The translations under genes were made by a program, and so were the position numbers. Positions 1-10,781 of a stretch of DNA of 10,840 nt are shown here, piece by piece. The stretch's first letter is position 1, and every line of letters starts with the position of its first letter. The DNA is from an uncultured delta proteobacterium. GTDB taxonomy: Bacteria > Desulfobacterota > Binatia > DP-6. The stretch is taken from assembly GCA_963815115.1 (NCBI GenBank), contig CAWFFN010000011.1:1-10840 (forward strand), in the 5' to 3' direction. The notes beneath the pieces are model-generated. The model saw only the letters and a program-made list of their open reading frames with translations, was not told the DNA's origin and searched no databases.

Positions 1-80
1 AGCGGGCTCTTCGAGGACGGACGCCGGTGCCAGCCTGCCCGTTCGGGGCCTCCGGCAGCCTCGTTACGCTCCGGCAGCCG

Positions 81-1211
81 ATGCCCGACCTCCCCGCTCA
101 TCCGCCGTCCGAGCCGAGTCAGCCGCTCCGGAGCTATGAGGAGTTCCTCGAGGACATCAAGGCGCGGATCCGAACCGCCCAGGCGCGGGCCGCGCGGGCG
201 ATCAACGCTGAGCTGGTCGAGGTGTACTGGCAGATCGGCCGGGAGATCCTTCGCCGTCAGGCCGAGGAGGGCCCGGAGCGCGGCCGTCGCACCCCCGGCG
301 TGATCCAGCGCCTCTCGGCCGATCTTCGCGCCGCGTTTCCCGGTGCCCGCGGATACTCTGTGCCGAGCCTGTACCGCATGCGAGCGCTCGCGGCGGCGTG
401 GCCCGAAGGTCTCTCAGACCGGATGAGAGACCTTCCGTGGGGTCATATCGTGACGATCACGGCCAAGGCGACGGAGGACGCGCGGGACTGGTACGCCGAG
501 CGAGCCGCAGCCTGGTCCCAGGAGCAGCTCGAGGCCGCGATCGGGACGCGGCTGCACCAGCGCCAGGCGGCCGCGATCACCAACTTCGGGCGGACGCTCG
601 AGGCGGGCGACGCCGCGGCCGTGCAGCGAATCACTCGCGACCCTCTGATCCTGGACTTCGTCGAGCTGGCCGAGAGCGCCAGGGAGCGCGACCTGGAGGC
701 CGCGCTGCTGAGCGACATCGAACGGTTCATGCTCGCCCTCGGCGAGGGCTTCTACTTCGCCGGGCGCCAGCGGTCGCTGCAGGTCGGCGGCGAGGAGTTC
801 GTCCTCGACCTGCTGTTCTACCACCACCCGACACGCCGCTTCGTCGTCATCGACCTGAAGGTCGGCCCGTTCCGCGCGGAGTTCGCCGGCAAGATGAACC
901 TCTACGTCAACGCCGTCAACGAGCTCATCGCCCACGACACCGACCGGGCGACGGTCGGGTTCATCCTCTGCACCGACCGCGACAAGACCGTCGCGCAGCT
1001 CACGCTGCAGGGCATCGCGACGCCGATCGCGATCACCCGCTACACGATCGGCAAGCAAGGAGTCGAGATGACCGGCGAGGAGGCCGAGATCACCGAAGGC
1101 ATCGACGAGGAGATGGAGTCGATGCGCCGCGTCGAGCAGCGAGTCGCTGAGTTCGCCGCGCGCCGAGCGAGCGAGCTCGCCCACGGCACCGGCTCGCGCG
1201 ACCGGCCCTGA
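81..1211 (+). CDS. YhcG/DUF1016 family PD-(D/E)XK nuclease domain protein
   Basis: N-terminal DUF1016 helix 'LEDIKARIRTAQARAARAINAELVEVYWQIGREI', 'LPWGH', 'RDPLILDF', 'ERDLEAALLSDIERFMLALGEGFYFAGRQ', and nuclease core 'LDLLFYH...FVVIDLKVGPF...GKMNLY...VGFILC'. ATG at 81 preferred over GTG at 27. Confidence 0.93.
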   Translation: MPDLPAHPPSEPSQPLRSYEEFLEDIKARIRTAQARAARAINAELVEVYWQIGREILRRQAEEGPERGRRTPGVIQRLSADLRAAFPGARGYSVPSLYRMRALAAAWPEGLSDRMRDLPWGHIVTITAKATEDARDWYAERAAAWSQEQLEAAIGTRLHQRQAAAITNFGRTLEAGDAAAVQRITRDPLILDFVELAESARERDLEAALLSDIERFMLALGEGFYFAGRQRSLQVGGEEFVLDLLFYHHPTRRFVVIDLKVGPFRAEFAGKMNLYVNAVNELIAHDTDRATVGFILCTDRDKTVAQLTLQGIATPIAITRYTIGKQGVEMTGEEAEITEGIDEEMESMRRVEQRVAEFAARRASELAHGTGSRDRP

Positions 1212-1245
1212 CCAGCGCCCGCGCGACTCGCTCCGGCTGAAGCGT

Positions 1246-1837
1246 TCACGCGCCGGCCAGGAACGCCGGGCGCTTCGACAGGCCCGCGGCAACCCGCAGC
1301 GCCGGCACGAGACGGTCAAGCGAGACGATCAGTACCCCGCCCTCGGTCCGCTCCAGACCTCTGGCCCGCACGACGCACAGGACCGGGAGCGCCCCGCGCC
1401 GGCACCAGCGCCGCCGGCGGCGGTGAAGCCACAGCGCCATCTCTCGCACGCCCGCTAGGTGACGCGCATCGAACGTTCGGGCACTTTGTTTCGATTGCGA
1501 ACGCGACGCCGCTGGGTGCGATCGCGATCGAGTCGATGTCTCCTGGCCGGCGCCACGGCAGCGAGTGTCGCAGCCGCCAGCCTTCACCCTCGAGCCGCGC
1601 GAGCGCGCGCTGGACCTCGTCCTCCGACTGGGCGCCGACTCGGCTGCGGCCGGCAAGCGCCAGCCAGCGACGCGCGCGTATACCCAGTGCCCCCGCGGCC
1701 AAGAGCAGCAACCCGTCCAGGGTCACGGCCCCGGCGCCGGCGGCGAGCAGCCCCAGCATCGCTACGGCTGCGCACCCCGCCGAGGCCATCACTGCACGCA
1801 TCAGCCGCCGGTACTGTTGCCGGTGGGCGAAATTCAC
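1246..1837 (-). pseudogene. NERD (nuclease-related domain) membrane-anchored protein with a +1 frameshift near 1481-1484
   Basis: Two hydrophobic helices followed by NERD motifs 'GAQSEDEV...WRLRHSL...GDIDSIAIAPSGVAFAIETK' in ORF 1316..2116. The natural continuation 'ARTFDARHL...ALPVLCVVR...VLIVSLDRLVPAL' lies in ORF 1246..1656. Minus strand reads AAG-T-GCC-CGA-ACG-TTC, i.e. one extra base. Start GTG 1837 (VNFAHRQQYRRL) is assumed; the frame is open to 2116. Confidence 0.8.
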
Positions 1838-2116
1838 GCTGCGCCCCGGCCGAAACGCCGGACTACCCAGCATAGAGATCCTCGTCGATCGTGGCGCGCG
1901 GTCGCCGACAGCGAGCAGGCGCTCCTCGAGCGCGAGCTTCCGCCGGCGGATCGTCTCGATCCGCTTGTCCAGCTCGACCGGGAGATGATCGCCCCACCCG
2001 AGCGCGTACAGCCGCAACTCCGTGGCCTCGAGATCCTCGAGCGCCTCCCACGGCCGGCCCGGGTCCGCGACATCGACGTCCGCGATCCGGCTGCGAGTGG
2101 GGGAGGGCTCTGGCAT
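1838..2116 (-). CDS. Hypothetical helical peptide in frame with the NERD gene (N-terminal extension, or a separate gene that lost its stop)
   Basis: ATG at 2116; protein-like charged helical segment 'PWEALEDLEATELRLYALGWGDHLPVELDKRIETIRRRKLALEERLL'. Confidence 0.4.
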
Positions 2117-2335
2117 CGCCTTCAGGTTGGTCGCCGTGCTGGATCGTGAACGCCTGTTTCCGAGATGGTCTCAGGCATGCTGGACGGAACCTGTCCGACA
2201 CCGGAAGCCAGAACGTTCGTGCTGAAGCGAGGCGTCGCGGTGACCGGATCGAGCGGGCACTTCGATCTCTTCGTTGCCCGGGCCCAGTACTGCGCTCCTT
2301 ACGAGCACGCGCAGCCACGCGTGATCGGCCGGATT

Positions 2336-2419
2336 GAGACGACGCTGCAAGCAGGCACGACGCTGTCCCAGCAGCCACGCTGGTCCCAGTTCCGCGCGCC
2401 CTGCTCGCAGCTTCGTCTC
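2336..2419. repeat. 84-bp imperfect palindrome just downstream of the recombinase
   Basis: GAGACGACGCTGCAAGCAGG (2336-2355) versus CCTGCTCGCAGCTTCGTCTC (2400-2419): 18/20 complementary. Confidence 0.8.
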
Positions 2420-2432
2420 CCAGTGTTCGGTG

Positions 2433-3137
2433 TCAGGATATGGTGTCCAGACCGGCGCTGGCCGGAAGCACCGGAGCCGGCCGACGGTAGACGGTATCGA
2501 CGATCTCCGAGCTGTCTATCCCCTGGAGGTAGACGCTGGTGATCCCGAGGTTGCTATTCCCCAGCTGGCGCTGGATGACGACCAGCGGGACGCCTTCGTG
2601 CGCCATCTCGATAGCGTGCGCATGTCTCATCTGATGAGGCGCGAAGCGGCGTCGCACGCCGGCGTTGACGGCGATTCGCTTGAGCTGTTTGCGGGCGGCG
2701 GAAGCCTCCCAGCGCCTCCCGGCCGTCGGTCCGTGGATCACGCACAGCAGCGTGCCGGGCGGGAGGCCGGCCCGGATCTCGATCCATGGCTCGAGCCGGG
2801 ACCAGGCCCAGCGGTCCAATCCGACCTCGCGGCGCTTGCCGCCTTTGCCGCGGCGGATCGTGATCTTGCCGTTCGGGCGGTCGAGATCGGTCTCGGCGAG
2901 ATCGAGCGCCTCGCTGATCCGCAGCCCGGCTCGCCAGAGGAGCACGATCAGCGCCCGTAGCCTGGCGCCGTCGCTGTTCTCGCCGGTGGCGCGCATAACG
3001 GCGATGATCTCCTCGACGGTCGGCGGGTCGGGCGGAAACCGCAGACCTTTGTTACGGGGCTGCCTCCCCTTGTGGTAGCCAGGCATCGTGACCGGCGACC
3101 GGCGATGACCGGCGGCGTTGAGAGCGATGTCTTCCAT
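2433..3137 (-). CDS. Tyrosine recombinase/integrase (short, catalytic domain only)
   Basis: Motifs 'LLWRAGLRISEALDL' (R), 'RRGKGGK' (K), 'PHQMRHAHA' (HxxR), 'IQRQLGNSNLGITSVY' (Y). AGGAGG RBS at 3144-3149, 6 nt from ATG 3137. Confidence 0.93.
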   Translation of the reverse strand: MEDIALNAAGHRRSPVTMPGYHKGRQPRNKGLRFPPDPPTVEEIIAVMRATGENSDGARLRALIVLLWRAGLRISEALDLAETDLDRPNGKITIRRGKGGKRREVGLDRWAWSRLEPWIEIRAGLPPGTLLCVIHGPTAGRRWEASAARKQLKRIAVNAGVRRRFAPHQMRHAHAIEMAHEGVPLVVIQRQLGNSNLGITSVYLQGIDSSEIVDTVYRRPAPVLPASAGLDTIS

Positions 3138-3153
3138 CACTCACCTCCTATAT

Positions 3154-3219
3154 GGACGTTGAGCTCGGCAGCCGGGAAAAGCACCGTGCGTGCTCGCCCG
3201 CGGCCGAGCAGGGTCGTCC
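3154..3219. repeat. 66-bp imperfect palindrome immediately upstream of the recombinase RBS
   Basis: Nested pairs GGACG/CGTCC, GCTCGGC/GCCGAGC, CGGG/CCCG, AGCAC/GTGCT with internal bulges. Confidence 0.7.
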
Positions 3220-3307
3220 CACGGTCTCGCAACCGGGCCGCAAAGTGGGTTATCTCGATCGTCTGACCGAGCGTTGGGGCCCGGTCAGTCCGGCGTAGGA
3301 TTGCCCG

Positions 3308-3712
3308 GTGTCGTTTGCGCACTATCCACCGGTCGACCAGCCGGGAGCCGAGCGGCTGCGGGCAGCGACCGTGGCGTGGGCGCCGCTGCTGGGCGAGCTG
3401 CACGCCGTCGGCCTGCGACCGTATCTCGAGCTCGAGCATGGCAATCGCGACGATGCGCTGCGGCTGTACTGCGAGGTCGACGGGGACCTGTTGCTCGACG
3501 CGTCGATCTGCGATGAAGGGCTCCCAGACACCCCTCCGGCGGCGCTCGACGACGACTGGACGGCGTTCGTCCAGAGCCCCCACAGCACTGAGCGCTACCT
3601 GGCCGACGTGATCATCGAGCTGCCGCTGACCTTCACGCTGCTGGCGGCGAAACTGCGCGACCTGGTCGACGCGGTCAGCGCCGGCGAACGGCCAGTGCGG
3701 ACGACCTGGTAG
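3308..3712 (+). CDS. Hypothetical protein (134 aa)
   Basis: Acidic globular composition, G/C-ending codons, GTG start preceded by AGGA at 3297-3300; no family recognised. Confidence 0.75.
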   Translation: MSFAHYPPVDQPGAERLRAATVAWAPLLGELHAVGLRPYLELEHGNRDDALRLYCEVDGDLLLDASICDEGLPDTPPAALDDDWTAFVQSPHSTERYLADVIIELPLTFTLLAAKLRDLVDAVSAGERPVRTTW

Positions 3713-3729
3713 CTACAAGCCGCTCAAGG

Positions 3730-3762
3730 CGGATCGCATCTGCTGTCAGATCCTGCGATCCG
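3730..3762 (+). terminator. Stem-loop after the hypothetical gene (possible terminator)
   Basis: CGGATCGCA...TGCGATCCG 9-bp arms with an inner TCTG/CAGA pair, 17 nt after the stop codon; no U-tract. Confidence 0.4.
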
Positions 3763-4125
3763 GCCGGGTGCCAGAGCGCCGGGGCTGAGGACCGTGGGGG
3801 AGGCCGAGGGCGTGAGGTCAGAGGCGGACGACGGTGGGGGAGATCACCGTCGGCGCCTGTCGTAGTCGGAGCGTGACGATGATCTCGTCGATGTGGATCC
3901 CCTCCAGGCAGACCGTGCGCGCTTCCCCTTCGGCGGGATCGCTAGCAGCAACCTTGCAAGCACGACGCCCGTCAAAAGGACGCGCCTCTGGCAGGCCGGG
4001 GTAAGCGGCGCCCGGCGGCGAGAGTTGCGCAAGGCACGCAGCACGGCGCACGCCAGGTGCTACGCGCGCCACGCAAAGTTGGGAAAGCACGTCTGGGCCG
4101 ACGTCTGGGCGTCTGCCTTGCAGTC

Positions 4126-4970
4126 GTCGGATAGGCCCGAGCGCATTGCTGCGCTCGGGCCCTCCTAGGAACCCGGCGTGCGACTTTCACCGCACCGGGC
4201 TCGAGCAAGCCGTTGAGATCCGTTGGCGTGGCGCCGTACGATCCGCTCGTCGAGGAGCGTTTCGTCCGCGGGTCCGTTCACCGCGACGTGTGTCGTGGCG
4301 TCTAACTTGTCCGTTGGTTCGGGCGTCATCGTCATCTTCTTCTCGCTGGCTCACCTGACCACGTCAGCGCCCTTGCGGGCCGGACCACCCGGGTCCGTAT
4401 CCGGCCGGTTGTGCGCGACCGCCAGCTGGAGGGGCTGGCACCTGGTCCCGGTTTCCCGTTGCGTTTCCGCTGCCGGCAATTCGCTTCTTGGTCATCCGAT
4501 TCCCGCCGGGGAGTTGGGCTCTCCTCACGGTCGGCTTACCGGACCTGAGTCCGGACCTCGACGGGGTTACCGCGTTCCGCACGTACGAGCTGCGAGCGGG
4601 GTGGGCGCCCTCTGTGCCCCGGGGACGACGGTGCTCCTCCCGGTCTGAGGCGCGTTCTCAGCCGGCGCCTGCCGCATCACAGCGGCCGTCCCTGCACCCC
4701 GCCACGACATCCCATCTCGCGGGGCTCTGCTTCACGAGGCATCAAACGAGGGTTCACAAAGTTCGCCCGTCCGCTCTTCCCCTCGCCTGTAGCGCCCGGA
4801 TGGAACGGGCGCCCTTGGGCTTCCCCCCGAGCTTCGCACCCCGCCGTTACCAGCGACGCACGTCGAGGGCGGGGACAGGCCATTGAGCACGGACCTGGAA
4901 CTACTCGATCACATCAAACTGATCCTCCAATCCGGGTAGTTCACTCGTGTCGTGCGACATCGCGTCGCAC
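4126..4970 (-). mobile_element. ORF-less group II intron (IIB / chloroplast-like class probable), 845 nt
   Basis: Minus strand starts GTGCGACGCG at 4970. Domain V GAGCCCGGTGCGGTGAAAGTCGCACGCCGGGTTC (4202-4169) has the AGC triad and GAAA loop. Domain VI GGAGGGCCCGAGCGCA-GCAA-TGCGCTCGGGCCT-A-TCC has a bulged A at 4132, and the intron ends GAC at 4126. EBS1 CGCGC (4654-4650) lies in the loop of CTGAG-AACGCGC-CTCAG, and EBS2 GGCAGG (4673-4668) is just upstream; both match the 5' exon CCTGCT-AC-GCGCG. Confidence 0.95.
4204..4335 (-). pseudogene. Remnant of the intron-encoded RT/maturase ORF (start and end fused by internal deletion)
   Basis: Domain IV position translates MTMTPEPTDKLDATTHVAVNGPADETLLD-ERIVRRHANGSQRLA running into domain V; this resembles, from memory, the first and last residues of actinobacterial intron RTs. 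No RT motifs (YADD) remain. Confidence 0.65.
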
Positions 4971-4990
4971 CGCGCGTAGCAGGTCTGAGC

Positions 4991-5045
4991 GGCTCGGCGA
5001 GCCGAGACTTGCTTTCGAATTTTGCGGGTCTCGGCAGCGCGAGCC
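4991..5045. repeat. 55-bp imperfect palindrome next to the intron 5' exon
   Basis: GGCTCG/CGAGCC outer arms and GCCGAGAC (5001-5008)/GTCTCGGC (5028-5035) inner arms around an AT-rich loop. Confidence 0.75.
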
Positions 5046-5064
5046 CTGCATTCACGAAAACGCG

Positions 5065-5334
5065 CTACTCCAGGTCGGCGGCATCGACGACGACCGCGCG
5101 GATGACGAAACGAGCCCCGCAGGTGGCGAGAACCAGGGCCCGGCCGGATTTGGCCGTGAGACCTCTCGGGAGATGAATGCGGGGCCCCGGACGGGTCTGC
5201 GGCGCCGGGTCCACGTGCCCGCGCCCGAACAAAAGCAGGGCGTTCGGGCCGGGCGTGACGACGACGTCCGGTCCGACGGCGTGGCGAGACGCGCTGCTGG
5301 CGAGAACGAGGGAACTTAAGATTTCGGCCGACAC
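5065..5334 (-). CDS. Possible small hypothetical protein (89 aa) or gene remnant
   Basis: The 3' part of ORF 5065..5727 is protein-like ('DVVVTPGPNALLLFGRG...ALVLATCGARFVIRAVVVDAADLE'); the 5' part overlaps palindromic DNA and looks non-coding. Confidence 0.35.
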   Translation of the reverse strand: MSAEILSSLVLASSASRHAVGPDVVVTPGPNALLLFGRGHVDPAPQTRPGPRIHLPRGLTAKSGRALVLATCGARFVIRAVVVDAADLE

Positions 5335-5762
5335 ACCTCTCGGCGAATCGAAGCGGGGCTGGGAGTCGGCGTTAGCGCGAGCCGTCGCGCGTACCCGCCG
5401 CGGAGCGAAAGCAGGTGCTTCCGCGCGACGATCATGACGGTCGGCGCGCTGACGATGCCGAGAGACTCGCCGATGGCGATTTGCAAGACCGCTCAGCCGC
5501 GCCGGCGAAGTCCTGCTTCGTTGCTGCCACGGGTATTTCGTGCCCGAGCGAACTCTTCCGCATCCCGCGGGAGCATCAGTCGCTCGGCATCGGGTCTGCT
5601 TCTGTTGGTCGTCCGTTCCGAGCATGCTGGAATCGATCGCGAGGCGCTTGCCCCGCGGGAATGCGGCACTCCACCGGGCCACACTGGCGGCCGTCGCCTG
5701 AACCTCGTGGGCGACGTCCGGCAGCACCGGGCACTACCCAACCCGAGCGTCGTCGGCGGTTG

Positions 5763-6821
5763 TTACGTACGCGAGAAGCGCGCCGCGGCGGCGGCGCGCG
5801 CGGACTTCCCGGACAGCCGCAGCTTCGCGTAGACGTTCGAGAGGTGGCGCTCCACTGTCCGGGTGCTTAGGAACAGCCGCTCTGCGATCTGCTCGTTGCT
5901 CATCCCGGCGGCCACAAGTTCGAGCACTTCGCGCTCGCGCTCGCTCAGCTCGGAGAGATCCGCGGCCACGGCAGGTGTTCGCTCGTCGTCGCCCAAGAAG
6001 GCGCGCACCTCGGCAAGAAATGCCTCCCAGGCCGGTTCGCCTTGCTGCAGGATGTGGTTGTCGGACTCGAGCGTCACGAAGCGAGCGTCCGGCAGGAGGG
6101 ATGCCAGGCGCCGCCCCTCCTCGTAAGGCACCGCCCGGTCGTGGCGCGCATGGAGAACGAGCGCCGGCTGGGTGATGCGGCGCGCCGTGTCGGTGATGTC
6201 GAGTTGCGTATTCGACAGCCACAGCCGTGCGGCCATCTCCCCGCTGCTGGAGGCCTGCTGCATGTCGTCATACCAACGCTTTTGCTCCTCGCCTGCGCTG
6301 GGGATGAAGAACGAGCTGAACACCTGTCGGAAGGCGGGCACCGCGCCGCCCCAGCCAACTCGCATCAAGTCGATCAGCAGCCGCGACTGCTCCGTCTCTC
6401 TCTCGCCGCGTTTGTAGCGCCCGCGCGTGTAGGTTCCGTAGAGGAGGAGATGGCTCACGCGCCCGGGGTTTCTGACGGCGTACTCGATCGCTGTCGGCCC
6501 GCCGCCCGAGACGCCGAATAGAGCGAAGCGCTCGAGTTCCGCGGCGTCCACCACGGCGGCCAGATCGCCGACGTAGGTGTCTAGCGTCGGTGTGCCGTCG
6601 AACTGCCGGTCCGAGAGCCCGCAGCCGCGCTCGTCGTAGCGAATTAGCGCGTGCCCTCGGCTCAGCTCGGTGACCCAGTGCCGCCAGACCGGGCTCTGCC
6701 GGTCGTAGTCGAGATGGGTCATCCAGTTGCCGGCCTTGACGAGCGGTGAGCCCTGACCGTCGATCGCGTATGCGAGGCCCACGCCGTCTGGCGCGGTGCA
6801 AAAGCGAGTCTCGTGCTTCAA
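5763..6821 (-). CDS. Alpha/beta-hydrolase fold + C-terminal LuxR HTH transcriptional regulator
   Basis: 'RYDERGCGLS', nucleophile elbow 'GVSGGG', 'HARHDRAVP', 'SDNHIL', then LuxR HTH 'LSEREREVLELVAAGMSNEQIAERLFLSTRTVERHLSNVYAKL'. TTG start at 6821 (or 6824) assumed. Confidence 0.93.
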   Translation of the reverse strand: MKHETRFCTAPDGVGLAYAIDGQGSPLVKAGNWMTHLDYDRQSPVWRHWVTELSRGHALIRYDERGCGLSDRQFDGTPTLDTYVGDLAAVVDAAELERFALFGVSGGGPTAIEYAVRNPGRVSHLLLYGTYTRGRYKRGERETEQSRLLIDLMRVGWGGAVPAFRQVFSSFFIPSAGEEQKRWYDDMQQASSSGEMAARLWLSNTQLDITDTARRITQPALVLHARHDRAVPYEEGRRLASLLPDARFVTLESDNHILQQGEPAWEAFLAEVRAFLGDDERTPAVAADLSELSEREREVLELVAAGMSNEQIAERLFLSTRTVERHLSNVYAKLRLSGKSARAAAAARFSRT

Positions 6822-6902
6822 CAAGACGATCGTACGCCCGGCAGATCGCGGCCCCTGCCTCGAGCTGTAGGTGGTTCGGGGCAACCCGGGCTGTCGCGAC
6901 CG

Positions 6903-6945
6903 GTACGTGCATCCCGCCACACGTCCCACCCGGATTTGGGTAGTG
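6903..6945 (+). promoter_or_regulatory. Candidate operator upstream of the OsmC operon
   Basis: GTACGT-N5-CCGCC-N17-TTGGGTAGTG; a second copy (N13 spacer) lies on the minus strand at 5770-5732. Confidence 0.45.
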
Positions 6946-7015
6946 GCGCCGATGTTGCGCAGGCGGCTTGGGAGGACGCTTCCACCAACACCACAACGAC
7001 CGAGGAGGTCTCCCA

Positions 7016-7585
7016 ATGACGGTAGCGACAGACACGATCCGCAACGGTGTGGACACCGAGAAGATGTTCGCCACGCTGGACTTGATCAAGGCGCAGCCGG
7101 AGCTAGCGAGGTTCCAGTTCCGGGCCACCAACCGCTGGATCGACGGCGCCCACAACCGCTCGACGATCAAGGGCTTCTATGCCGCGGGCGGCGAGGACGC
7201 CACGCGCAGCGAAGAGTTCCGGATCGACGCGGGCGAGCCGGCGATCCTGCTCGGCAGCGACACCGGTCCCAACCCGGCGGAGTACCTGTTGCACGCGCTC
7301 GCCGCCTGCCTGACGACGTCGATCGTCTACGTGGCCGCGGCGCGCAGGGTGCAGCTCACGTCGGTCGAGTCGACCCTCACGGGCGACATGGACGTGCGCG
7401 GCGCACTCGGCGTCGACGACGAGCCGCGCAACGGGTTCGAGCGCATCGGCGTGACGTTCCGCGTGACGGGGAACGCTCCCGAGGACAAGCTCCGCGAGGT
7501 CGTGGAGCGGGCCCGGAAGCGCTCGGCCGTCTACGACATGGTCACCAACGGCGTGTCCGTCGCCGTGGGGGTGGAGACCGACTGA
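7016..7585 (+). CDS. OsmC/Ohr family protein
   Basis: 'GEPAILLGSDTGPNPAEYLLHALAACLTTS' signature; AGGAGG RBS at 7003-7008 before ATG 7016. Confidence 0.92.
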   Translation: MTVATDTIRNGVDTEKMFATLDLIKAQPELARFQFRATNRWIDGAHNRSTIKGFYAAGGEDATRSEEFRIDAGEPAILLGSDTGPNPAEYLLHALAACLTTSIVYVAAARRVQLTSVESTLTGDMDVRGALGVDDEPRNGFERIGVTFRVTGNAPEDKLREVVERARKRSAVYDMVTNGVSVAVGVETD

Positions 7586-7662
7586 GCCTCGCATGCAGGC
7601 CCGTGGCCGACGCCACCGCGCTCCGGCCACGGGTGCGTGAGGGGCGGATTGGAGAGTCCGTG

Positions 7663-8880
7663 ATGCCGATCGAACTCACAACCCACACCGACGCCGGTGC
7701 CCGCCTCGTGGCGATCGCCGAGCGGCTCTGCGACCAGCTCGCCGCCTGCGCCGCTGAGCACGACCGCGACGGCACGTACCCGTTCGAGGCGATCGAGGCG
7801 CTCAAGGCGACCGGCTACTTCGCGGCGCCCGTCCCCGTCGAGCTCGGTGGGCTCGGCGTCTCGTCCGCGCACGACCTCGTCGTGGCGTCAAGCCGCCTGG
7901 CGCGCGGCGACGCCTCCGTTGCGATCGGCGTGAACATGCACCTCGTCGCGGTGCACAACATGGAGCGCCGCCGCCAGGTCGCGGTCGCCGCCGGGGAAGA
8001 GCGCCGCGCCCGCGGCTTTGCATCATCGCTCGAGCAGATCGCCCGCGAAGGCGTGGTGCTGGCCGCCGCGATCAGCGAGCCTGGCCAAGACCTGACCAGG
8101 CCGAGCACGCGCGCCACCCGCACGGTGTCCGGCTGGCGAATCGACGGTCGCAAGCTGTTTTGCACCATGTCCCCCGCCGCCACCGACCTCTACGTCGCCG
8201 TCACGTATGCCGACGGCGAGGGAGCTGAGCGCTACGCGTACGCGATGGTCCCCACCGGCGCGCCCGGCGTCACGGTTCACGACGACTGGGACGCGCTCGG
8301 CATGCGCGCCTCCGGCAGCAACTCAGTCTCGCTCGAGGGCGTCGAGCTGCCCGAGTCCGGTGTGCGCGGTGGCTTTCGCGCCGGCGATCCGACGCCGTAC
8401 ATGGAGCGCAACCTAGTGGCCGGGCTGTTCCACGCCGCAGCCTCGCTCGGCATCGCCGAGTCGGCCGACGAGGTCGCCCGCCGCGGCGTCGCCGGGCGCA
8501 TCAACGGCCCTGCGCGCCCGCTCGTGCAGGTGGCTGGCAACGCCGTCGACCTAGCCGCCTCCCGCGGCGTCCTCTCGCGCGCCGCTGCGCTGATCGATCA
8601 CCACCGCGCCGCCAACCCGGCCTCCGACGGCACCGCCGAGGAACTCGGCGCGCTGTTCGCCGAGGCCCAGGCCGCCAAGGCGTTCGTCAACGAAGCAGCC
8701 GCCCGCATCGTGGACCGCGCGCTCGGCCTCTCGGGCGGCGCCGGCTACCTCAACGGCAGCCTTCTCGCGCGGGCGTACCGCGACGTCAAGGCCGGCTCCT
8801 TCATGCACCCGCTTGGCGCCAACCGCGCGTATGACTACCTCGGCCACGTCGCTCTCGGCGAAGAGGCGTCGCTGCACTGA
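7663..8880 (+). CDS. Acyl-CoA dehydrogenase-fold protein, probably a two-component flavin-dependent monooxygenase
   Basis: 'AAEHDRDGTYP', 'PVELGGLG', 'LARGDASVAIGVNMH', 'GWRIDGRKLFCTMS', 'DDWDALGMRASGSNSV', 'GGAGY...LARAYRDVKAG'. GGAG RBS at 7651-7654. The adjacent flavin reductase supports monooxygenase function. Confidence 0.9.
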   Translation: MPIELTTHTDAGARLVAIAERLCDQLAACAAEHDRDGTYPFEAIEALKATGYFAAPVPVELGGLGVSSAHDLVVASSRLARGDASVAIGVNMHLVAVHNMERRRQVAVAAGEERRARGFASSLEQIAREGVVLAAAISEPGQDLTRPSTRATRTVSGWRIDGRKLFCTMSPAATDLYVAVTYADGEGAERYAYAMVPTGAPGVTVHDDWDALGMRASGSNSVSLEGVELPESGVRGGFRAGDPTPYMERNLVAGLFHAAASLGIAESADEVARRGVAGRINGPARPLVQVAGNAVDLAASRGVLSRAAALIDHHRAANPASDGTAEELGALFAEAQAAKAFVNEAAARIVDRALGLSGGAGYLNGSLLARAYRDVKAGSFMHPLGANRAYDYLGHVALGEEASLH

Positions 8881-8881
8881 G

Positions 8882-9385
8882 ATGACGCTCGCAGCTCCAG
8901 CCCCCGCGGCGCCAGCGCCCAAGGCGCGCTCGTTCCGTGACGCGCTCGGCAGGTTCGCGACCGGCGTCGCGTTCGTCACCGCGGCGCCTGACGACGAGCC
9001 GGTCGGGTTGATCGTGAACTCGCTCACCTCCGTCTCGCTCGAGCCGCCCCTAGTCTCGTTCTGCCCAGCGCGGAGCTCGCTCACGTGGTCGCGGATGCGT
9101 CGCGCGGGACACTTCGGAGTGAACGTGCTGGGGCGGCAACACGAGCGGTTCGCAGTGCGCGCGACCCCTGTCGGCGCGGAACGATTCGCCGGCCTCGACT
9201 GGGAACTCGGACCCCGGGGCGCGCCGCTGCTCAGCGATGCCCTCGCCACACTCGAGTGCGAGATCCTCGCCGAGCACCCCGCCGGCGACCACTGGATCGT
9301 CGTCGGCCGCGTCGATGCCCTGCGCACCTCGCCCCTCAAAGACCCGCTCGTCTTCTTCGCCGGCGCATTCGGCGCCCTGAGATAA
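8882..9385 (+). CDS. Flavin reductase family protein (HpaC/RutF/DszD-like)
   Basis: 'FRDALGRFATGVAFVT', 'SLTSVSLEPPLVSFC', 'FGVNVL', 'AGDHWIVVGRV', 'PLVFFAGAF'. ATG lies 1 nt after the upstream TGA, consistent with translational coupling. Confidence 0.94.
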   Translation: MTLAAPAPAAPAPKARSFRDALGRFATGVAFVTAAPDDEPVGLIVNSLTSVSLEPPLVSFCPARSSLTWSRMRRAGHFGVNVLGRQHERFAVRATPVGAERFAGLDWELGPRGAPLLSDALATLECEILAEHPAGDHWIVVGRVDALRTSPLKDPLVFFAGAFGALR

Positions 9386-9687
9386 CGAATGAAGACAACG
9401 GCCCGGCCACCCGAAGAGCCTTCCATCCCCGACAAACGGGGCGTCTCCGCAGAGGTGCCGACGACGCTCGGTGTGGACGAGACGCGACAGCGCGCCCACC
9501 CCAACGCCGGGCCTCTGAATCCTCGGGACGATGCGAGAGCTGACCTCGGAGAAGACCTCCTTTCGCTCCCCCGCGGTACTCGTGGCCGGCCAAACCAGTC
9601 ACCCGCCTTGCGCGGCCAGCGGGGTACGGAAGCGCCGGAAGCGGAGCCGCGTGTCCCACGCGGCCGCAGAGCCCTGCTTTCCGCGCA

Positions 9688-10781
9688 GTGGGCTATCCAT
9701 TTGAGTCAGGTAGTCTCGGGTTCGTGCCGACAGCGGGCAAGGACTATCCGGGTTCCTACGGCGAGCTGCTGGCGTGGTTCCCTGATAATCACGCGTGCAT
9801 CGACTATCTCGAGTGGTTGCGCTGGCCCGAGGGGTTCCGCTGCCCGCGGTGTGTCAGTCGCGCCGGCTGGCGGTTGAGTTCCGGCCGTTGGGAGTGCACG
9901 GTGTGTGGGCGCCAGACGTCGGTGACGGCGGGGACGATCTTCCACCGCACGCGCACCCCACTGCCGACGTGGTTCGCGGCGGCGTGGCTGATGACAAGCC
10001 AGAAGCAAGGCGTTTCGGCGCTTGGACTTCAGCGGGTGCTGGGCCTCGGTTCCTACCAGACGGCGTGGGCGATGCTGCACCGGTTTCGCTTGGCGATGCT
10101 ACGCCCAGGCCGCGAGCGGCTGAGCGGCTGGGTGGAGGTCGACGAGGCGTACGTCGGAGGTCTCGAGGGTACCGTCCACGGTCGGGAAACGGCGACGAAG
10201 TCGATCGTCGCGATCGCCGTTGAGATCAAGCAGCCCAAGGGTTTCGGGCGGATCCGACTGCAGTCGGTCCCGGACGTCTCACAGGGCAGCCTGATCCCGT
10301 TCATCGAAGCGACCGTCGAGCCCGGCGCGACGGTCCACACCGATGGATGGCAGGCGTACTGGACCGTGCCCGAGCACGGCTACCTGCACGAGCGGACGAT
10401 CATGCGCAAGCAGAACGACCCGGCGCACGTCGTGATGCCAGGCGTCCACCGCGTCGCCAGCTTGCTCCAGCGCTGGCTGCTCGGCACCCACCAGGGCGGG
10501 GTCGGCCCCGAACACCTCGACGCATACCTCAACGAGTTCACCTTCCGGTTCAACCGCCGGCACTCACGGCGCCGGGGAATGCTCTTCTACCGCCTGCTCG
10601 AACAGTCGATCGCAGCCGAACCGGTCACCTACAGCAGCCTGATCGCCAACCCAAAGGCGACCGGCCGGCAAGCGACGCCTCCATCACGTCCAGGACGCGT
10701 CGCCTCGGTTCCCGCAGTCCACCGGCCGTGGCGGCAAACCCCAGCGAATACACGCTCCCCTGACCCAAATGGATAGCCCAT
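9688..10781 (+). mobile_element. IS1595-family insertion sequence (about 1094 bp)
   Basis: Inverted repeats TGGGCTATCCATTTGAGTCAGG (9689-9710) and CCTGACCCAAATGGATAGCCCA (10759-10780), 21/22 complementary; 8-bp direct repeat TCCGCGCA at 9680-9687 and 10782-10789. Confidence 0.93.
9724..10776 (+). CDS. IS1595-family transposase (zinc ribbon + ISXO2-like DDE domain)
   Basis: CPRC...CTVC zinc ribbon, 'TAGTIFHRTR', catalytic 'VEVDEAYVGG', 'VHTDG', 'YLNEFTFRFNRR'. GTG 9724 preferred because 9688 is the element end. The stop codon lies inside the right inverted repeat. Confidence 0.94.
   Translation: MPTAGKDYPGSYGELLAWFPDNHACIDYLEWLRWPEGFRCPRCVSRAGWRLSSGRWECTVCGRQTSVTAGTIFHRTRTPLPTWFAAAWLMTSQKQGVSALGLQRVLGLGSYQTAWAMLHRFRLAMLRPGRERLSGWVEVDEAYVGGLEGTVHGRETATKSIVAIAVEIKQPKGFGRIRLQSVPDVSQGSLIPFIEATVEPGATVHTDGWQAYWTVPEHGYLHERTIMRKQNDPAHVVMPGVHRVASLLQRWLLGTHQGGVGPEHLDAYLNEFTFRFNRRHSRRRGMLFYRLLEQSIAAEPVTYSSLIANPKATGRQATPPSRPGRVASVPAVHRPWRQTPANTRSPDPNG

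Follow-up and report, generated by a model that had tools for sequence, protein, structure and literature searches.

The 10,840-nucleotide (nt) stretch of DNA considered here, which will be called the window, is the whole of the 10.8-kb contig CAWFFN010000011.1 (C11) of assembly GCA_963815115.1 (G000), attributed to an uncultured delta proteobacterium of the class Binatia. Its minus strand contains a group II intron of 845 nt (4970 to 4126) that has no open reading frame (ORF) for an intron-encoded protein (IEP) and that, by comparison with other genomes, is one copy of a widespread ORF-less group II family of soil Actinomycetota. The explanation that we prefer, with a probability of about 0.8, is that the intron is a member of a family derived from introns that encode a reverse transcriptase (RT), and that this ORF-less family has been spread by the maturase of such siblings acting in trans.

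The intron and its ORF-less family

When the whole window was scanned against Rfam at gathering thresholds, two matches and no others emerged, both inside the intron (Table 1) and both scoring above their cut-offs; a permissive scan of positions 3800-5300 added nothing but plastid domain V models below threshold, placed on the same helix, and two microRNA matches due to chance. Searches for an RT or maturase in the element returned no Pfam family at E ≤ 0.1 in six overlapping frames. The sequence features that define group II introns are all present: the domain V helix with its catalytic AGC, bulge and GNRA loop, the bulged adenosine of domain VI, the domain I-IV architecture, the 5' GUGYG, and the pairing between exon-binding site 1 (EBS1) and intron-binding site 1 (IBS1). 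Positions 3-7 of the 5' consensus GUGCGAC are invariant in 31/31 unique family copies, the domain V helix has compensatory pairs in the family fold, and 6 nt separate the branch-point adenosine at 4132 from the 3' splice site, where the intron ends in ...CCUAUCCGAC with 4126 as its last base (...GAC). The insertion site across the exon joint reads GACCUGCUACGCGCG|GACUG, and the exon junction GCGCG|GACTG given in the preliminary description of this DNA agrees with the sequence. Taken together, the two Rfam matches, the intact end and branch features and the lack of Pfam families confirm that description's principal claim, that of a genuine, intact-looking, non-autonomous (ORF-less) group II intron, as far as sequence can tell.

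The intron was also considered as a possible member of class C, whose introns target terminators, and this assignment was rejected, as the minus strand has no terminator-like site upstream of 4970. Class C introns have a shortened domain V; that of the window intron has the full 34 nt, and the sibling IEP described below is far closer to 6me0_C than to the GsI-IIC RT.

The extent of the family was evaluated by scanning species-representative genomes for two conserved anchors that flank the missing ORF and lie 40-70 nt apart. This pattern occurs in 60 stretches of 34 assemblies (counted by accession prefix), most of them titled Solirubrobacterales, Solirubrobacteraceae, Conexibacteraceae or Actinomycetota, and a few titled Nitriliruptoraceae, Streptosporangiaceae, Mycobacteriales, Chloroflexota or Alphaproteobacteria. 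Once three further copies at locus edges are dropped, 34 other complete copies of 826-863 nt are collinear with positions 1-845 of the window intron at 72-94% identity, and they sit in differing flanking DNA. The notion of a deletion private to the window copy does not hold, since all 34 have the same short domain IV. The removal of 4 identical sequences leaves a family alignment of 31 unique copies, the window copy included, which is collinear through what remains of domain IV (hereafter, the stub). Metagenome contigs provide at least 120 matches to the anchor pattern; of 80 such loci that were fetched, 79 match the intron, 37 are complete and collinear, and 71 give one alignment across the whole stub. 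The nearest relative is locus L075, itself ORF-less, with 94-95% identity; an exact 32-nt stretch of the stub is found in L075 alone among genome contigs, and in none of the metagenome contigs.

The consensus fold of the 31 copies comprises 211 pairs, 73 of which have compensatory double changes. The window copy has non-canonical pairs at 9 of the 211 (family range 2-21, median 5), and three of these nine come from a shifted alignment of its EBS1 stem, which is perfectly paired. The alignment shows a ribozyme under structural selection, of which the window copy appears to be intact.

Evidence for the way in which the copies reached their sites comes from target recognition. The EBS1 loop CGCGC (4654-4650) pairs over five contiguous bases with the 5' exon GCGCG (4975-4971), and at least five contiguous EBS1-IBS1 pairs that end at the splice site are found in 25 of 35 copies, as compared with 39 of 1112 (3.5%) when introns are set against the exons of other copies. 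Across the family the EBS1 loop co-varies with the 5' exon. The 5' target of L075 is near-identical to that of the window (GACCUGCUA[A/C]GCGCG), and its 3' flank is unrelated. This pairing, together with the differing flanks, shows, as read from the aligned loci, that insertion of the ORF-less form itself has happened repeatedly and has followed the recognition rules of the intron.

The ORF-less form is also present in RNA libraries. Contigs from soil and peat RNA runs (X1 and X2, which have identical records and are possibly one data set, X7 and X11) match the interior of the intron only (4149-4965), with 0-1 differences over 151-306 nt, and one contig of 272 nt crosses the stub with 0 differences. 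These contigs contain no exon joints and do not cover the flanks; the absent flank cover proves nothing.

Three further observations concern the makeup of individual members. Many of them, ORF-less and ORF-containing, are interrupted at about positions 474-512 of 845 by insertions of 1.8-4 kb (L036:1836-3660, L044:1168-2941, also L057, L083, L087 and many matches in genomes G401 and G402). The two insertion ORFs that were examined are IS110-family transposases (DEDD_Tnp_IS110 + Transposase_20), and this looks like an insertion sequence (IS) that specifically targets the conserved ribozyme segment. At L082:465-3760, an ORF-less copy (2922-3760) directly follows the 3' end of another family intron, its 5' flank ending in ...CCUACCCGAC, and a second partial match (1-717) lies upstream; these introns are tandem or nested. 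Finally, five copies of one assembly (L048, L060, L074, L080 and L081) have both flanks in common, start with CUGCGAC instead of GUGCGAC and pair poorly between EBS1 and IBS1 by a simple test; in this subgroup the intron probably travels within a larger repeat or else has a different 5' boundary.

Table 1. Positions of the intron, its parts and the neighbouring genes in the window
Feature	Position	Strand	Basis or remark
Whole ORF-less intron	4126..4970	-	Rfam at both ends; nhmmer family profile 4970-4127, E 1e-239
RF02012 group-II-D1D4-7, part of domain I	4898-4811	-	36.9 bits, cut-off 34
RF00029 Intron_gpII (domains V/VI)	4204-4126	-	51.0 bits, cut-off 40, full model 1-77
IBS1, last 5 nt of 5' exon, GCGCG	4971..4975	-	pairs with EBS1 loop
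5' splice-site consensus GUGCGAC	4964..4970	-	sequence
EBS1 hairpin CUGAG-AACGCGC-CUCAG	4645..4661	-	EBS1 core CGCGC at 4654-4650
Domain IV stub, 152 nt	4204..4355	-	closed by invariant basal stem GGU/GAGCC with GGCUUGCU
IEP start remnant, ATG + ~26 codons (..PEPTDKLDA..VNGPADE)	4260..4335	-	aligns to sibling ltrA N-termini
Hairpin ACGA-AA-CGCUC(loop)GAGCG-GA-UCGU	4238..4265	-	at ~22-nt internal deletion relative to siblings
Remnant of sibling codons VRRLRQRIFTA (RVT_N region), ~10 codons	4209..4239	-	alignment to siblings
Main ~1.65-kb ORF deletion junction ...CAACGGC|UUGCU	~4209..4211	-	sibling comparison
CGA in place of the sibling stop codon TGA that overlaps domain V	4201..4203	-	sibling and family alignment
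Domain V, 34 nt, GAAA loop, two-base bulge	4169..4202	-	RF00029 alignment
Domain VI, unpaired branch-point A at 4132	4129..4165	-	RF00029 alignment; consensus fold column 927 unpaired
First bases of 3' exon, GACUG	4121..4125	-	sequence
YhcG-type PDDEXK nuclease	27-1211	+	contig C11
NERD-domain protein	1316-2116	-	contig C11
Tyrosine recombinase	2433-3140	-	contig C11
Hypothetical gene	3308-3712	+	flanks the intron's non-coding stretch
Alpha/beta-hydrolase-LuxR gene	5763-7016	-	flanks the intron's non-coding stretch
IS1595-family transposase	9688-10776	+	end of contig C11

ORF-containing siblings and the domain IV stub

Introns that encode an RT and resemble the window intron are found on Streptomyces plasmids (for example, NZ_CP109482.1 and NZ_CP108736.1), with 73-77% identity to intron positions 1 to ~680 and 760-845. 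They have the same 5' and 3' ends and the same domains V and VI, but they are about 2.55 kb long and contain in domain IV an ltrA ORF of 601-603 amino acids, which the window intron lacks. Plasmid matches of 99% identity or more were rejected as evidence of close kinship, as they cover the 34-nt domain V alone. The sibling IEPs contain the domains RVT_N, RVT_1 and GIIM, and their best match among structures of the PDB is 6me0_C (E 9e-99), far ahead of the GsI-IIC RT (E 1e-35) and LtrA (E 6e-30); we take entry 6ME0 to be the TeI4h ribonucleoprotein of Thermosynechococcus elongatus. The maturase domain GIIM was found in 5/5 family-carrying genomes tested (70, 134, 16, 8 and 12 matches), and the same five genomes contain collinear ORF-less copies beside full-length siblings, the latter recognised by matches to 1-708 and 760-843 about 1.7 kb apart. 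Two of these genomes have more than 40 intron matches each. A plasmid of Rhodococcus sp. WAY2 (L006, NZ_CP046574.1, 335090-335964) matches the intron in six places, one of which is an 875-nt stretch that starts from the end of an annotated RT-domain gene and adjoins IS21 genes; this arrangement is possibly another compact or nested intron.

The anatomy of domain IV was established by alignment with five ORF-containing siblings. The domain is short, as the preliminary description held, and its length is 152 nt (4355-4204) instead of about 130. All 8 pairs of its basal stem are kept in 31/31 copies, 7 of them unchanged and one with a single C-G to U-G change. What is left of the ORF consists, in this order, of some 26 N-terminal codons, about 10 codons of the 'VRRLxQRI' region and the last 2-3 codons; the first and last codons of the RT gene are retained as had been proposed, and the alignment with the siblings adds an internal piece between them. 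Local alignments of that piece recur at one sibling position (for copy L039, a score of 39 against a shuffled maximum of 27). The reading of the middle of the stub as a C-terminal remnant, suggested by a weak likeness to an RRH..G peptide, was abandoned: the alignments fall some 1,650 nt upstream of where domain IV ends, and the N-terminal VRRLxQRI region is therefore preferred.

Two deletions separate this stub from domain IV of the siblings. To the 5' side of the main junction the sibling sequence is ...UUCACGGC|GUCG..., and to its 3' side ...CCAGGGC|UUGCU, which places the deletion of about 1.65 kb in a GGC microhomology. The second deletion, of about 22 nt, is marked by the hairpin at 4265-4238, which the preliminary description had taken for the junction of the ORF deletion. 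The hairpin is real and conserved, with 89.1% of 265 cells paired as against 22.8-33.3% when the partner is slid and with double changes in 4 of its 9 pairs, but the main junction lies about 35 nt away from it. The preliminary description correctly singled out the CGA at the domain V boundary, where RT ORFs often stop at TGA; comparison with the siblings bears this out, and CGA occurs in 6/31 unique copies, the other 25/31 having TGA. Three copies (L039, L040 and L059) have atypical stubs.

The IEP start remnant is highly conserved at the nucleotide level, including a TTA codon amid sequence of about 67% GC, and contains a conserved hairpin of its own (4302-4279, minus strand). Downstream of it the reading frame is not conserved, and 7/31 copies keep the frame as far as the former stop. 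By its pattern of conservation the stub is shown to be conserved as RNA and not as protein. A mini-ORF at 4335-4165 (56 amino acids) was rejected as a peptide gene, given that only its 5' part is conserved, its frame is kept in 7/31 copies and it has no Pfam match. In the introns of T. elongatus and in Ll.LtrB, the high-affinity site of the maturase is DIVa, the 5' portion of domain IV, according to the excerpted text of Mohr, Ghanem and Lambowitz (2010; PMC2882425). By analogy, the start region of the stub is a putative DIVa-like maturase-binding region, and its conservation would be explained by such binding.

The history of the family was examined with a maximum-likelihood tree of the ribozyme (positions 1-623 and 760-845) that includes 31 ORF-less copies and 8 ORF-containing siblings. 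Both forms are interleaved, with 6 state changes, at least 5 of them forced by well-supported branches, and ORF-containing siblings cluster with ORF-less copies from the same genome. The approximately unbiased (AU) test rejects a single ORF-less clade (p 9.8e-5); a second test was applied to the 28 hairpin-type copies, a set defined after the tree was seen. The ORF-less copies nevertheless have the two deletions and several stub-specific substitutions in common, which favours a single origin of the stub, after which recombination or gene conversion with introns that contain the ORF probably took place. Alternatively, the deletion at the GGC microhomology could recur.

A bolder version of this history, which we regard as tentative and rather doubtful, would see in the family a long-lived 'satellite' of RT-encoding group II introns that moves among distant Actinomycetota, with the stub exchanged or regenerated across ribozyme bodies and the window copy caught intact in a helper-free host. 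Such exchange or regeneration of the stub would explain why the ribozyme tree is interleaved despite one common stub. If true, the window copy would become the second candidate, after C.te.I1 of Clostridium tetani, for an IEP-free bacterial group II intron.

Contig origin and competing explanations

Assembly G000 (6.89 Mb, 12 contigs) is estimated to be 100% complete. In the family of the host, which is the whole of its order, 0/24 other genomes have the intron, GIIM occurs in 3/24 of them and, within the genus, in 0/4; among 401 genomes of the host class, 21 have partial intron matches, and a collinear ORF-less copy occurs in G000 alone. In its core domain the host rpoB is 93% and 89% identical to that of genus and family relatives and 62-79%, piecewise, to that of three genomes that carry the intron family (69-81%, also piecewise, for the rpoB region at the DNA level). 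With rpoB so distant and the intron 94% identical to L075, it follows, on these comparisons, that the intron sub-lineage was not inherited with the host core genome.

The rest of the contig points in the same direction. Its stretch 6900-9429 (OsmC / acyl-CoA dehydrogenase / flavin-reductase) is 85-87% identical, end to end, to three intron-carrying genomes of Solirubrobacterales type, while the 24 relatives of the host give matches of 26-110 nt only; the IS1595, integrase, NERD and YhcG genes of C11 have many matches in intron-carrying genomes. An empty target site was not found in the 24 family genomes, which match 3200-5900 over 63 nt or less. C11 has no stretch in common with another contig of G000; of the six other small contigs, by contrast, five overlap main contigs at 98-100%. 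The tetranucleotide composition of C11 is typical of G000 (57th percentile), but this test does not discriminate because both lineages have about 70% GC. C11 therefore appears foreign to the host core genome, either by recent transfer or because it was mis-binned from a Solirubrobacterales-like organism, and the 'orphan' status of the intron in a helper-free genome may reflect one or the other. If C11 is mis-binned, the missing helper is an artefact.

With respect to the assembly itself, C2, C3, C4, C6 and C10 duplicate main-contig stretches at 98-100% identity (for example, C2 1-15778 and the end of C12, or C6 794-14522 and the start of C7), which looks like strain variants or unresolved repeats. 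The genes of C11 at 27-3140 and 9688-10776 are of mobile-element or defence type. The intron itself lies in about 2 kb of DNA with no convincing coding signal.

The preferred explanation can now be stated as a series of events. By comparison, the family derives from introns encoding an RT/maturase whose protein is most like the maturase/RT of PDB 6ME0. The deletion of about 1.65 kb, bounded by two microhomologies that contain GGC, took away almost all of the ORF, and the second, of about 22 nt in domain IV, created the conserved hairpin. A complete ribozyme (domains I-III, V and VI) and the 152-nt stub were retained, and the stub may keep the maturase-binding site, as in TeI3 introns. The same analogy suggests that a sibling's RT/maturase, supplied in trans, carries out splicing of the RNA and promotes its reverse splicing into DNA targets able to pair with EBS1 and EBS2. 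The window copy lies at such a site, with 5 bp of EBS1-IBS1 pairing and a target like that of L075, in non-coding DNA of a contig rich in mobile elements. In G000, splicing would depend on self-splicing by the ribozyme; alternatively, the contig may come from a Solirubrobacterales-like organism that possesses helpers.

Several observations weigh against this explanation. Profile searches of G000 found 0 GIIM and 0 RVT_1; tblastn of three sibling IEPs gave nothing below E 0.4 in that assembly except the stub itself; and no second copy of the ribozyme was found there by BLAST, RF00029 or the nhmmer family profile. The preliminary description had named as signs of a dead relic a single copy with no helper and no splicing, and the first half of this does apply in G000; likewise, the multiple copies that it thought possible exist as collinear ORF-less copies in all five other genomes searched, and the RT-encoding sibling that it pointed to in 5/5 of those tested, with one copy and no helper in the window's own assembly. 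With neither helper nor second copy, the window copy is probably immobile in G000. In addition, 10 of 35 copies have no good EBS1-IBS1 match by the simple test, and, as the ORF-less copies do not form one clade, 'one deletion, then clonal spread' is too simple a history. The RNA-library contigs cannot show splicing, and DNA carry-over is possible. Both trans-mobilisation and the binding of the maturase by the stub are argued here by analogy.

The absence of an RT/maturase from G000 and the good preservation of the ribozyme would also suit an independent intron that splices and does no more, by self-splicing or with host factors, and that is kept because a transcript requires its removal, a situation with a precedent on record in C.te.I1 (PMC4424553, PMC3919590, as excerpted). 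We consider this unlikely. At the insertion site there is no gene whose expression would need splicing: no coding frame adjoins either splice site (none has sustained high third-position GC) and the flanking ORFs have no Pfam domain, so that nothing obvious depends on splicing. Furthermore, the flanks are accessory DNA without counterpart in the 24 relatives, the membership of the contig in G000 is doubtful, and preservation is equally explained by recent arrival, given the 94% identity to L075.

A decaying ribozyme that no longer works, left behind after the loss of its helper, is what a single copy in an intergenic position and an assembly with no helper might suggest. This is quite improbable, as the 9/211 non-canonical pairs are within the range of copies from helper-rich genomes, domain V, the branch-point adenosine, the 5' consensus and EBS1-IBS1 are all intact, and the identity to L075 is 94-95%. 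Least credible, indeed very hard to sustain, is a private deletion from a full-length parent. In its favour, a GGC microhomology junction could recur, and the ribozyme tree has ORF-less copies dispersed among those that contain the ORF. Against it, both deletions, the hairpin and the stub-specific substitutions are common to dozens of copies, the nearest relative L075 (94%) is itself ORF-less, and no full-length parent or fragment of one was found in the assembly.

Relation to known ORF-less introns

In its excerpted text, a 2015 review (PMC4424553) presents bacterial ORF-less introns as rare and as nearly always co-residing with related IEP-encoding introns, C.te.I1 being the sole exception; in its view few of them should have escaped notice, and derivatives of this kind are suggested to be short-lived. 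A survey of 2022 (PMC8919778, likewise in excerpt) reports a rise in ORF-less introns in certain genomes and very few group II introns in most genomes of Actinobacteriota. By title, no paper on the window family was found; the supplementary tables of the survey might list ORF-less expansions in Actinomycetota.

Within soil Actinomycetota, the family contradicts the expectations of rarity, of few overlooked introns and of short life found in those parts of the 2015 review: some assemblies have dozens of copies per genome, at least 120 metagenome contigs match, the stub is retained at 72-94% identity, and the family is represented in RNA libraries. Its size and spread exceed what the excerpted literature would predict. 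ORF-based annotation overlooks all of its copies, as had been foreseen for the window intron. The family constitutes a natural series for the question of how much of domain IV, and which portion, is required by a maturase that acts in trans, and it bears on the recombination of non-autonomous introns with their helpers and on their fate in a helper-free cell. The window copy itself is one ordinary member, on a contig of doubtful genome assignment.

Archaeal ORF-less group II introns, of which Dai and Zimmerly are said to have given an account in 2003, reportedly co-reside with RT-encoding relatives; the family is alike in this co-residence and differs in the domain of life. C.te.I1 of Cl. tetani is located in a surface-layer protein locus, is alternatively spliced in vivo and self-splices in vitro, according to excerpts of two articles (PMC3919590, PMC4424553). 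Like it, as it appears there, the window copy is a group II intron of bacteria that lacks an ORF and whose assembly contains no IEP gene; unlike it, the window copy is intergenic, belongs to a mobile family and has an uncertain genome assignment.

The closest known system is that of the TeI3 ORF-less introns. In the excerpted text of Mohr, Ghanem and Lambowitz (2010; PMC2882425), T. elongatus has 17 of them, all with one deletion in the second part of domain IV (DIVb) and a second, smaller one in common, with N- and C-terminal remnants of the ORF and good EBS/IBS pairing, and they are mobilised by related IEPs. The window family also has no IEP ORF but remnants of its ends, and its break-points are the same at many genomic sites. 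As far as that text describes them, both are ORF-less derivatives with one large and one smaller deletion in domain IV whose break-points are common to the copies; both keep N- and C-terminal remnants and occupy differing sites with EBS/IBS pairing; and both have related IEP-encoding introns in the same genomes, which for the window family holds in 5/5 other genomes tested, while the window copy's own assembly is without such a helper. They differ in that trans-mobilisation is experimental for TeI3 and inferred for the window family, and in that the ribozyme phylogeny of the latter is interleaved with ORF-containing siblings. Finally, the TeI3 introns of the excerpted account belong to one cyanobacterial genome, whereas the window family extends over at least 34 assemblies, several lineages of Actinomycetota and many metagenome contigs.

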